Assembly: GCA_964344415.1 (NCBI GenBank)
Contig: CAYFMS010000001.1
Location: forward strand, 317,315-381,314
Origin: an uncultured Gammaproteobacteria bacterium
GTDB lineage: Bacteria; Patescibacteriota; Patescibacteriia; UBA9934
Direction of reading: 5' to 3'
DNA: 64,000 bases
In this document: positions 41,732-43,021 of the stretch, piece by piece
Layout of the letters: each line of letters begins with the position of its first letter
How positions within the stretch are numbered: the stretch's first letter is position 1
Notes under the pieces: generated by a model
Seen by the model: the letters and a program-made list of their open reading frames with translations, nothing else
Told to the model about the DNA's origin: nothing
Database searches by the model: none
Translations under genes and position numbers: made by a program

Positions 41732-43021
41732 CTAGCTTTGTGTCGCCAGATACTGATCGCGCAGAAGTCGTACCATGGCAATTTTGCGGTCGTGGAAATT
41801 GCCATGCCTCGGATGGGGCGGTTGGACTTTGAATATCTTGACGCTGCATCCATGTTCTTGCGTCTTGATTCGCAGCCAGGCGAGCATATTCGCGAGCCAC
41901 CCAGTGTTCTGTGAAGACCAATTCTTGCCGAGTGTCCCTCGACGATCGCTCTTCTTGCTGTCAGCGAGCTTGCCTTGCTTGCTTCGCACAATCAGTTCCG
42001 TTACAACAAAATGCCTCGGACCCGCCATGCTCAGCAGGCGCTGAACGAATTCTCTTTGGCTTTTCTGCTGCTGCGCGCGAAGAGTCTCGAACATGATGCG
42101 CCGTGCGTTCTTCATGCGGTTGTATCGCCTGGATTGCTGTTCACGATCCTTGCGATACAGTTTTCGCATACGCGCCGACACACTGTCGATGCGAGGCTTC
42201 CAATGCAGGTCTGGCCTGGGAACATCGACGACTCCCTCGATCCAACCGTCATCGGTAGGGATGAGTACGCCAATCGATGTTGTTCCGAGAGCGATGAACC
42301 CGACATTCCCGCCGAGTCTCTCGGCAATGTGGTCCAGTGCTTCAGGCGCGGGGATGGCGAATGCGATCGACATCCAATAGCGTCCGTCCCGCGATCGGTA
42401 GAGTGTGAACTTCTTCGCTTCACCCTGCCGCAGCTGTTCTTGCTGATACGGCGGAATGGGGAAGGTCATCACATCATTCGCAGCAACTTTCTTGCATGGC
42501 AGGGTGACGGATGACATGTCAGGAGCAAGACGAAATGTCTTTGGATCTCGCGATGAGATCTCCTGAAAGCGACCATCATCCTTTGCACGCGGATGTTTTG
42601 CCTTTGGGTCACCGCGATTCTTGAGCTGATAATAGCTCTTGAACGAGGCGTCCAGCGTGACAAGACAGTCATTTTGCCAAGCCCGCGGCACGCGCGCGAA
42701 TTCCGGTTGCTGCCCTCGGATTGGCGTCAGGATATGCTTCTGCTGAGCAAAGGCATTAGCATTATTCTTCACGTCAGGATGCTGCTTTGCCTCCTTCAGC
42801 TGCGCCTTCAGTTTCTTCACTGCATCTTTACGGCGCTCATTCTGCGCCGTGTGAATCTGGACGTAGATCGGCGCCAGATGTGTATTGTACGCTTCCGTTC
42901 TGGCTGTTACAGACATATTCCACAGTGCTTTCAGATTCTCGCTGATCACATTGATTGCATCGAGCTGCTCCGAATTCGGGACAATCTCGAATTTTGCGAC
43001 GCGATACAGGTACTCACTCAT
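41732..43021 (-). CDS. TnpB/Cas12-like RNA-guided-nuclease homolog. It lacks the RuvC-I aspartate and is C-terminally truncated, with no zinc finger and no RuvC-III. Candidate nuclease-dead effector or TldR-like regulator.
   Basis: N-terminus YRVAKFEIVPNSEQ resembles the TnpB N-terminal pattern. The RuvC-I-equivalent region is VGFIALGTTSIGVLIPTDDG, with the expected GIDLG aspartate replaced by Ala. The RuvC-II region is FVVTELIV, with Glu retained. There is no CxxC...CxxC and no third catalytic segment. About 52 % GC. Own promoter TTGACA-17-TATTCT at 43088-43060 and a GGAGGA RBS. Confidence 0.6.
   Translation of the reverse strand: MSEYLYRVAKFEIVPNSEQLDAINVISENLKALWNMSVTARTEAYNTHLAPIYVQIHTAQNERRKDAVKKLKAQLKEAKQHPDVKNNANAFAQQKHILTPIRGQQPEFARVPRAWQNDCLVTLDASFKSYYQLKNRGDPKAKHPRAKDDGRFQEISSRDPKTFRLAPDMSSVTLPCKKVAANDVMTFPIPPYQQEQLRQGEAKKFTLYRSRDGRYWMSIAFAIPAPEALDHIAERLGGNVGFIALGTTSIGVLIPTDDGWIEGVVDVPRPDLHWKPRIDSVSARMRKLYRKDREQQSRRYNRMKNARRIMFETLRAQQQKSQREFVQRLLSMAGPRHFVVTELIVRSKQGKLADSKKSDRRGTLGKNWSSQNTGWLANMLAWLRIKTQEHGCSVKIFKVQPPHPRHGNFHDRKIAMVRLLRDQYLATQS

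Follow-up and report, generated by a model that had tools for sequence, protein, structure and literature searches.

The stretch of DNA considered here, 64 kb of contig CAYFMS010000001.1, carries on its (−) strand a compact locus composed of a gene for a 429-aa protein with the fold of TnpB and Cas12f (the effector), a gene for a shortened Cas1 protein (mini-Cas1) and two copies of a non-coding scaffold RNA, each of which runs into a CRISPR array. The whole stretch is referred to as the window, and positions are counted from its first letter. Relative loci that were fetched for comparison are labeled L001 etc., and relative proteins P0062 etc. The features of the locus are given below in the direction of transcription.

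44475..44503, (−): promoter-like site of scaffold/array unit B, TTGACA-17-TAGCGT, read directly
44249..44468, (−): scaffold RNA B, about 220 nt, putatively similar to trans-activating CRISPR RNA (tracrRNA-like) and array leader, 5′ end inferred
43870..44248, (−): CRISPR array B, five 39-nt repeats with five spacers of 32-33 nt, followed by a sixth, truncated repeat
43842..43863, (−): intrinsic terminator of array B, 9-bp stem, GAAA loop and T-run
43095..43799, (−): mini-Cas1, 234 aa, N-terminal domain of about 85 residues absent, catalytic residues intact
43060..43088, (−): effector gene promoter, TTGACA-17-TATTCT plus TG extension
43025..43030, (−): ribosome-binding site GGAGGA, 3 nt ahead of the effector ATG
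41732..43021, (−): effector, 429 aa, TnpB/Cas12f fold, with Ala244 and Thr341, lacking a Zn ribbon and a conserved RuvC-III Asp
41690..41711, (−): intrinsic terminator of the effector gene, stem-loop and T-run after the stop codon
41618..41646, (−): promoter-like site of scaffold/array unit A, TTGACA-17-TAGCGT
41392..41611, (−): scaffold RNA A, second copy
41226..41391, (−): CRISPR array A, two full repeats (differing from B by three substitutions) with two spacers, the third repeat being truncated
41199..41221, (−): intrinsic terminator of array A

The effector gene had been singled out by an earlier reading of the letters alone (the original prediction), in which it was described as an inactivated TnpB-like gene with expression signals of its own next to a cas1 remnant. 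The 429-aa open reading frame (ORF) at 41732-43021 (−) exists, and so do the signals: the promoter (43088-43060) agrees with the consensus in 10 out of 12 positions, possesses a TG extension and is the only such site in the 3.5 kb scanned, and the arrangement of the GGAGGA ribosome-binding site is also found in L001 and L004. The promoter-like site of unit B scores below the threshold of the consensus promoter scan; TTGACA-17-TAnnnT occurs at the equivalent place in L001, L004 and L006.

The effector and its family

Searches with Pfam and NCBIfam returned a weak N-terminal match of the effector to HTH_OrfB_IS605 / IS200_TnpB and nothing else. The AlphaFold2 model, for which nine homologues were used, is confident (predicted local distance difference test, pLDDT, 86.6), and its best structural match is ISDra2 TnpB with a score of 20.9 and 325 residues aligned. 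ISFba1 TnpB (19.9), AsCas12f (19.5) and Fanzor2 (18.4) come next, followed by natural dCas12f (16.4), Cas12m2 (14.5), LaTranC (14.2) and Cas12k (13.2). The TnpB fold with its WED/REC/RuvC core is present, so that the structure prediction suggested earlier as a check gave a fold of the TnpB/Cas12f type. In agreement with this, hhalign relates the family profile to canonical TnpB (P0145) with a probability of 98.9%. By sequence the single effector protein has no relatives in the PDB, and the sole PDB match of the family profile is an AI-designed TnpB-like nuclease.

The catalytic residues were located by profile alignment. Ala244 (in VGFIALG) falls on the RuvC-I Asp of canonical TnpB both in hhalign and in an hmmsearch comparison with the TnpB-like PDB entry, in line with the Asp-to-Ala exchange proposed originally, and across the family this position holds A, S, G, T, K or E, residues that are small or varied. 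The RuvC-II Glu, which had been read as retained in FVVTELIV, is by contrast replaced: by hmmalign, hmmsearch and hhalign alike, Thr341 is aligned to the catalytic Glu, and Glu342 to the next residue of the canonical vEDL motif, an Asp. Position 342 is V, T or H in some family members. The protein continues for 87 aa past Glu342, not for the roughly 60 aa stated before. The absence of the third catalytic Asp and of a CxxC...CxxC motif was correctly recognized. The expected RuvC-III position is mostly Asn or variable across the family and is not conserved, and CxxC occurs in 0 out of approximately 55 family members within the C-terminal 140 aa. PF07282 (Zn-ribbon) has no match in the effector; the canonical relatives P0081 and P0134 do match it. 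Because of Ala244, Thr341, the non-conserved RuvC-III position and the missing CxxC, all three canonical carboxylates of the D-E-D triad and the Zn ribbon are, as judged from the alignments, gone from the effector.

A word-indexed search yielded eight full-length homologues of 411-458 aa with 33-59% identity. The exhaustive profile search found 269 representative clusters with E<1e-3, of which 68 reach E<1e-30, and approximately 55 of the clusters are full-length core members (30-59% identity), all without the RuvC-I Asp and the Zn ribbon. In a scan of species-representative genomes 18 out of 19 loci came from Patescibacteria lineages, namely Saccharibacteria, Paceibacteria, Adlerbacteria, Staskawiczbacteria, Kaiserbacteria, Moranbacteria and Parcubacteria, and the remaining one lies on a 3.3-kb contig binned as Bacteroidia. 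No relatives were found on IMG/VR viral contigs.

Since the losses hold across about 55 full-length clusters, the effector belongs to a maintained family and is not a pseudogene. The original prediction had argued for exaptation instead of decay and had asked whether Asp loss and truncation recur in related loci. Both are conserved across the homologues, as is the loss of the Zn ribbon, and the gene has its own promoter, ribosome-binding site and terminator, so this part of the prediction holds.

Two further observations concern the relatives. L023 (5001-6695) appears to be decaying: the match to the effector begins only at residue 107, and a frameshift interrupts cas1. A sister family (P0062-P0109; E 1e-38 to 1e-17) consists of TnpB-like proteins of about 400-460 aa which keep the RuvC-I Asp (RAIDLGAGD), show IVIGK at the expected RuvC-II and have no Zn ribbon. 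In the one locus examined (L029:159-2163) the gene of the sister family is followed by an overlapping gene for a 267-aa Cas1, and the sister family may represent a second Cas1-linked mini type V lineage.

The base composition of the effector gene (53.6% GC; GC at third codon positions, GC3, 0.61) differs from that of cas1 (37.3%; GC3 0.35) and of the window (45%). The contrast itself had been noticed before; the separate acquisition that was concluded from it is not supported. The GC3 of the effector exceeds that of cas1 in 18 out of 18 loci (mean +0.23, maximum +0.49), the effector is in each locus GC-richer than the rest, and the excess is uniform along the gene. An overlapping antisense gene was ruled out as the cause, as there is no conserved antisense ORF. 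Pairwise identities of effectors and Cas1 proteins are correlated (r = 0.65, Mantel p = 2e-4), and the window effector and the window Cas1 both group with L001 and L004. This agreement indicates that effector and Cas1 have been inherited together. In view of the constant GC offset and the correlated identities a recent foreign acquisition of the effector was rejected, and the contrast is a property of the family.

Two hairpins at about 41690-41711 and 43842-43863, which are 84% alike over 25 nt, had been taken for either terminators or subterminal palindromes of an IS200/IS605-like element around the cas1 and tnpB-like segment. Their similarity and the first option are borne out: both are (−)-strand stem-loops with a T-run, one of which ends the effector gene and the other array B. 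The second option was rejected on the same grounds, and because both are intrinsic terminators the hairpins do not bracket a mobile element. Neither TnpA nor transposon ends were seen in the window and among the listed neighbours, and the effector is present as a single copy in the window. It is flanked by the duplicated scaffold/array units and, in L001 and L004, by housekeeping genes.

Mini-Cas1, scaffold RNA and arrays

The cas1 gene had been regarded as a fragment. What is found is a conserved mini-Cas1 of 234 aa in the window and 226-272 aa across the family, which starts with MNALW and in many loci has an in-frame stop a few codons upstream. Its matches to Pfam and TIGR00287 begin at model position 85/86 (TIGR00287: E 4.4e-32, positions 86-325), that is, the N-terminal beta-sandwich domain is absent; where the flank is long enough, most loci can be aligned to residues 1-234 of the window protein. 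All 18 out of 18 Cas1 proteins share E64, H128, D141 and E144, which in a PDB alignment correspond to the catalytic positions of Cas1 proteins with known structure. The protein has what identifies a Cas1 integrase, a C-terminal catalytic domain with an E/H/D(E) metal site.

In most loci with enough flank cas1 lies directly downstream of the effector gene. In the window it lies immediately upstream, and in L017 it is also upstream, with a scaffold/array unit in between. No Cas2 or Cas4 was found among the listed neighbours of L001, L004 and L031. A deletion of cas1 is visible in L005 (1600-1800) and L006 (1940-2170), where the first approximately 29 nt (MNALWLQRI) are fused to a repeat remnant and a terminator; the effector and a single-spacer scaffold unit are intact in both loci.

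The two units on the (−) strand of the window have the same order, TTGACA-17-TAGCGT followed by approximately 220 non-coding nt, the CRISPR array and a terminator, and the scaffold copies A and B are 93% identical. The 39-nt repeat of array B reads GTTCACACCCCTCCTTCGGGAGAGGGAGTGGTATGCTAC. Spacers in the window are 32-33 nt long, and only the 5′ half of the last repeat is kept. One to three such transcription units occur per locus, and arrays adjoin the effector gene in nearly all loci with enough flank. In L001-L006 two or three copies with 92-98% identity flank the genes. The arrangement of the copies varies. L001 also has a tandem third unit, and two units stand in inverted orientation around the genes in L019 (2441-2675 and 4497-4662) and at both ends of L008. 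The L019 units share a spacer, which points to an inverted duplication; the window shows a direct one.

Homologues of the scaffold were found in about 20 loci by nhmmer, and Rfam contains no matching family, neither at gathering threshold nor when E values up to 1 were admitted. RNAalifold and explicit counting of pairs on an alignment of 16 sequences support five helices. In these helices 92.6% of the alignment cells are paired, compared to 80.3% in shuffles and 45-49% with slid partners; 17 pairs show changes on both sides, and 0 out of 500 shuffles reach the observed values. The window scaffold together with the first repeat has a minimum free energy z-score of −4.66, and its fold reproduces the covarying helices.

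Two of the pairings connect the scaffold to the repeat, both within the last ~12 nt of the latter. In one of them, n′GCUAC at the extreme 3′ end of the repeat is paired with GUAGCn, the loop of a covarying hairpin; columns 186:317 contain the pair types AU (7), GC (4), CG (1) and UA (1), and L020 has GUAUC:GAUAC. The second helix joins ACCCC with GGGGU, for which the window has the compensatory ACCAC:GUGGU. As covarying segments pair with the repeat 3′ end, the scaffold is predicted to behave like a tracrRNA whose anti-repeat pairs with the spacer-proximal part of each repeat. In the first unit the scaffold passes directly into repeat 1 and spacer 1, which makes this unit similar to an omega RNA or to a single guide that occurs naturally. 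The guide architecture is like that of type V, with the guide 3′ of the repeat and a degenerate distal repeat.

Turnover of spacers was seen in L001, L002 and L003, which originate from three different samples and encode an identical effector. The arrays compared were L001:4960-5190 and 7646-8226, L002:145-300 and 2760-3100, and L003:82-300. The upstream array contains one or two spacers and differs at the scaffold-proximal position. The downstream array contains two or four, with an extra scaffold-proximal spacer and a duplicated proximal repeat variant. This is the pattern expected of polarised integration by Cas1 at the scaffold-repeat junction. Because strains with identical effectors differ in their scaffold-proximal spacers, the comparison of the arrays indicates that adaptation is active in these loci.

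In addition, the L018 array (4218-4660) contains the spacer ACACGGCGGTTCGACCCCGCCCATCTCCACAAG, which resembles the 3′ half of a tRNA (T-arm and acceptor). A spacer of this kind would be expected if its source were an element with a tRNA gene as integration site.

Interpretation, known systems and alternatives

The dead TnpB-fold effector, mini-Cas1 and one to three scaffold/array units form a conserved module with spacer turnover. We favor, with a probability of roughly 0.6, the reading that this module is a compact type V CRISPR-Cas variant restricted to Patescibacteria (candidate phyla radiation, CPR) which interferes by RNA-guided binding of DNA without cutting it. A precursor RNA would be processed into guides of scaffold and CRISPR RNA (crRNA), with the first scaffold unit as a possible natural single guide. 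The complex of protein and RNA would then bind complementary invader DNA beside a target-adjacent motif (TAM) and could interfere by blocking transcription or replication, after the example of Cas12c and Cas12m. New spacers would be inserted at the scaffold-repeat junction by mini-Cas1 alone, the scaffold doubling as leader. By analogy with V-C and V-D loci, which contain cas1 only (PMC10691335), Cas1 may act without Cas2.

Features of type V are found at the locus: a single effector with RuvC fold by an array, the corresponding orientation of the repeat, and an adaptation module with signs of spacer acquisition. The PADLOC-DB profile Cas12_x1 (PDLC01225, filed as CAS-V-F effector) matches residues 2-428 of the effector on positions 7-402 of 402 (E 1.3e-103), and it also matches the sister family (5e-39). 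Because Cas12_x1 matches end to end, the protein family is already catalogued as a type V effector. The entry is a label only; in the papers searched we found no account of the dead site, the loss of the Zn ribbon, the mini-Cas1 or the scaffold RNA, with V-U6 to V-U45, V-O, V-P and Cas14d-h lying outside the comparison. True Cas12f profiles match the window effector weakly (E 1.2e-3) and at the N-terminus only. The family possibly represents an uncharacterised nuclease-dead type V system at the level of a subtype.

Among the known systems, Cas12k (V-K, CRISPR-associated transposons) has a dead effector and a short array; its long tracrRNA is encoded immediately upstream of the array and oriented like it. 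The window locus shares the dead effector and the tracrRNA-like RNA upstream of a short array; the difference is that Cas12k is linked to Tn7, and no Tn7-like tnsB, tnsC or tniQ occurs in the listed neighbourhoods of L001, L004 and L031. Unlike ISDra2 and ISFba1 TnpB, the effector lacks the DED triad, the Zn ribbon, transposon ends and TnpA, and has arrays and Cas1 instead. Cas12f/Cas14 (V-F) has an active RuvC and a Zn-finger, whereas the window effector has neither. TldR and dCas12f-sigmaE have fixed guides, neither arrays nor Cas1, and partners (fliC/oppF loci or rpoE). In contrast, the family described here has arrays of variable spacers together with Cas1, no self-match in window or flanks, no sequence similarity of its effector profile to 9n9c, and no sigma-factor Pfam match among the listed neighbours of the same three loci.

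Functional parallels are Cas12c and Cas12m. Cas12c (V-C) interferes by binding without DNA cleavage (PMC12669027) and resembles the present system in having Cas1 as its only adaptation gene (PMC10691335), but is three times larger. Cas12m (V-M) is likewise a small effector with a degraded RuvC, which blocks transcription by binding (PMC12669027, PMC11013384); it differs in being larger and without adaptation genes.

Several observations weigh against the reading as a cleavage-free immune system. No protospacer that would point to a target type or a TAM was found in the searches made: spacers have no match within the 64-kb window or in the fetched loci outside the arrays, INPHARED phages gave matches at chance level only (E ~0.9), three spacers searched against IMG/VR gave nothing, and one spacer searched against JGI metagenomes returned its own array only. 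With 1-8 spacers the arrays are very short. In some loci cas1 has gone (L005/L006 and L011) or is in decay (frameshifted in L023). Finally, four acidic residues of the RuvC region are well conserved (D271, E/D342, D354 and E389; at least 90%).

An alternative would be that the dead effector is an RNA-guided recruiter which hands its target over to an unlinked or variably linked partner, a nuclease or a host factor, as Cas12k recruits a transposase and dCas12f a sigma factor. Recruitment is the mode of action of other dead derivatives of Cas12 and TnpB (PMC13472631), and directly beside scaffold B lies a divergent gene for a RecB-like nuclease of the TM0106 family (44562-45986, (+)), the product of which matches TIGR03491 (E 4.9e-101), carries a C-terminal RNase_H_2 domain and shows faint matches to Cas4. 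As a conserved partner this gene was rejected, since tblastn finds it in none of the other fetched loci, and it is probably not part of the system. The neighbours in L001 and L004 are unrelated housekeeping genes, and no conserved third gene was seen. On balance we regard a recruiter as unlikely, albeit as the best of the alternatives.

Somewhat less likely again is a role as regulator of host genes, similar to TldR or a natural CRISPR interference (CRISPRi), with spacers aimed at promoters of the own or the host bacterium. A nuclease-dead protein with tiny arrays would fit such a role, the more so as L005 and L006 persist with a single-spacer unit and no cas1, and there is a report of a dCas12f linked to CRISPR whose guides target promoters (PMC13472631). 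It is more difficult to reconcile with a Cas1 that is conserved with intact catalytic residues and with spacer turnover between strains with identical effectors, and a search covering the 64-kb window and the locus flanks, with whole genomes outside it, gave no spacer match.

The four conserved acidic residues raise a further alternative, namely that the active site is not lost but rearranged, and that D271, E/D342, D354 and E389 rebuild a center for DNA cleavage or for the processing of pre-crRNA. Rearranged RuvC sites are known from clades of TnpB, one of them a major clade that lacks the Zn finger (PMC10691335), and the sister family keeps its RuvC-I Asp. On the other hand, the RuvC-I Asp of the present family is replaced by residues as different as those listed above, and position 342 is itself not acidic in some members. 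We judge this improbable, a little more so than regulation. That a degenerate CRISPR locus was the landing site of a decaying TnpB pseudogene or of an IS200/IS605 remnant, as the weak N-terminal TnpB match and the compositional contrast to the neighbours could suggest, is hardly credible and was discarded, given the full-length conservation in about 55 clusters, the lack of TnpA and transposon ends, the single copy in the window, hairpins that are terminators, and an effector that co-evolves with Cas1.

Returning to the type V variant that binds without cutting, a more far-reaching version can be formulated, to which we would give slightly less than even odds. It would be a CPR-specific type V subtype in which a fully nuclease-dead effector of the size of TnpB, without Zn ribbon, and a Cas2-independent mini-Cas1 provide adaptive, cleavage-free immunity. 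The scaffold fused to the array would serve as leader, tracrRNA and first single guide at once, a living intermediate between omega RNA and split tracrRNA/crRNA, and among the known CRISPR-Cas systems that are complete, with adaptation plus interference, it would be the smallest.

If this is true, two genes of about 2 kb and an RNA of about 220 nt constitute a complete adaptive CRISPR system that never cuts DNA and is maintained across many genome-reduced symbiotic lineages, and a stand-alone Cas1 of about 230 aa represents a minimal integrase. This bears on the defence of CPR bacteria, which were thought to be poor in CRISPR, on the pairing of binding-only immunity with ongoing spacer acquisition, and on the splitting of omega RNA into tracrRNA and crRNA. 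A natural dead Cas12 of about 430 aa with a defined scaffold could also be an attractive chassis for compact CRISPRi and for base or epigenome editing.

Other features of the window

GC-rich palindromic repeats of the CCTGCC/GGCAGG type are located in intergenic DNA at 40205-40224 and 40376-40395, approximately 1 kb from the arrays of the window. A similar palindromic element occurs upstream of the L001 locus (L001:4560-4630), and these palindromes may be an element of these genomes that is like repetitive extragenic palindromic (REP) sequences. Further islands of high GC (0.54-0.60), in which long ORFs of the two strands overlap, are found at 24700-27600, 16850-17770 and 51825-52916 and are unrelated to the CRISPR locus. 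Their sole Pfam matches are a MopE-type metal-binding motif (26016-27584, (+)) and an FGE-sulfatase domain (51825-52916, (−)). At the Rfam gathering threshold the window also contains a tRNA at 11487-11560 (+), a transfer-messenger RNA (tmRNA) at 19841-20220 (−) and an S-adenosylmethionine (SAM, S-box) riboswitch at 56896-56991 (+).

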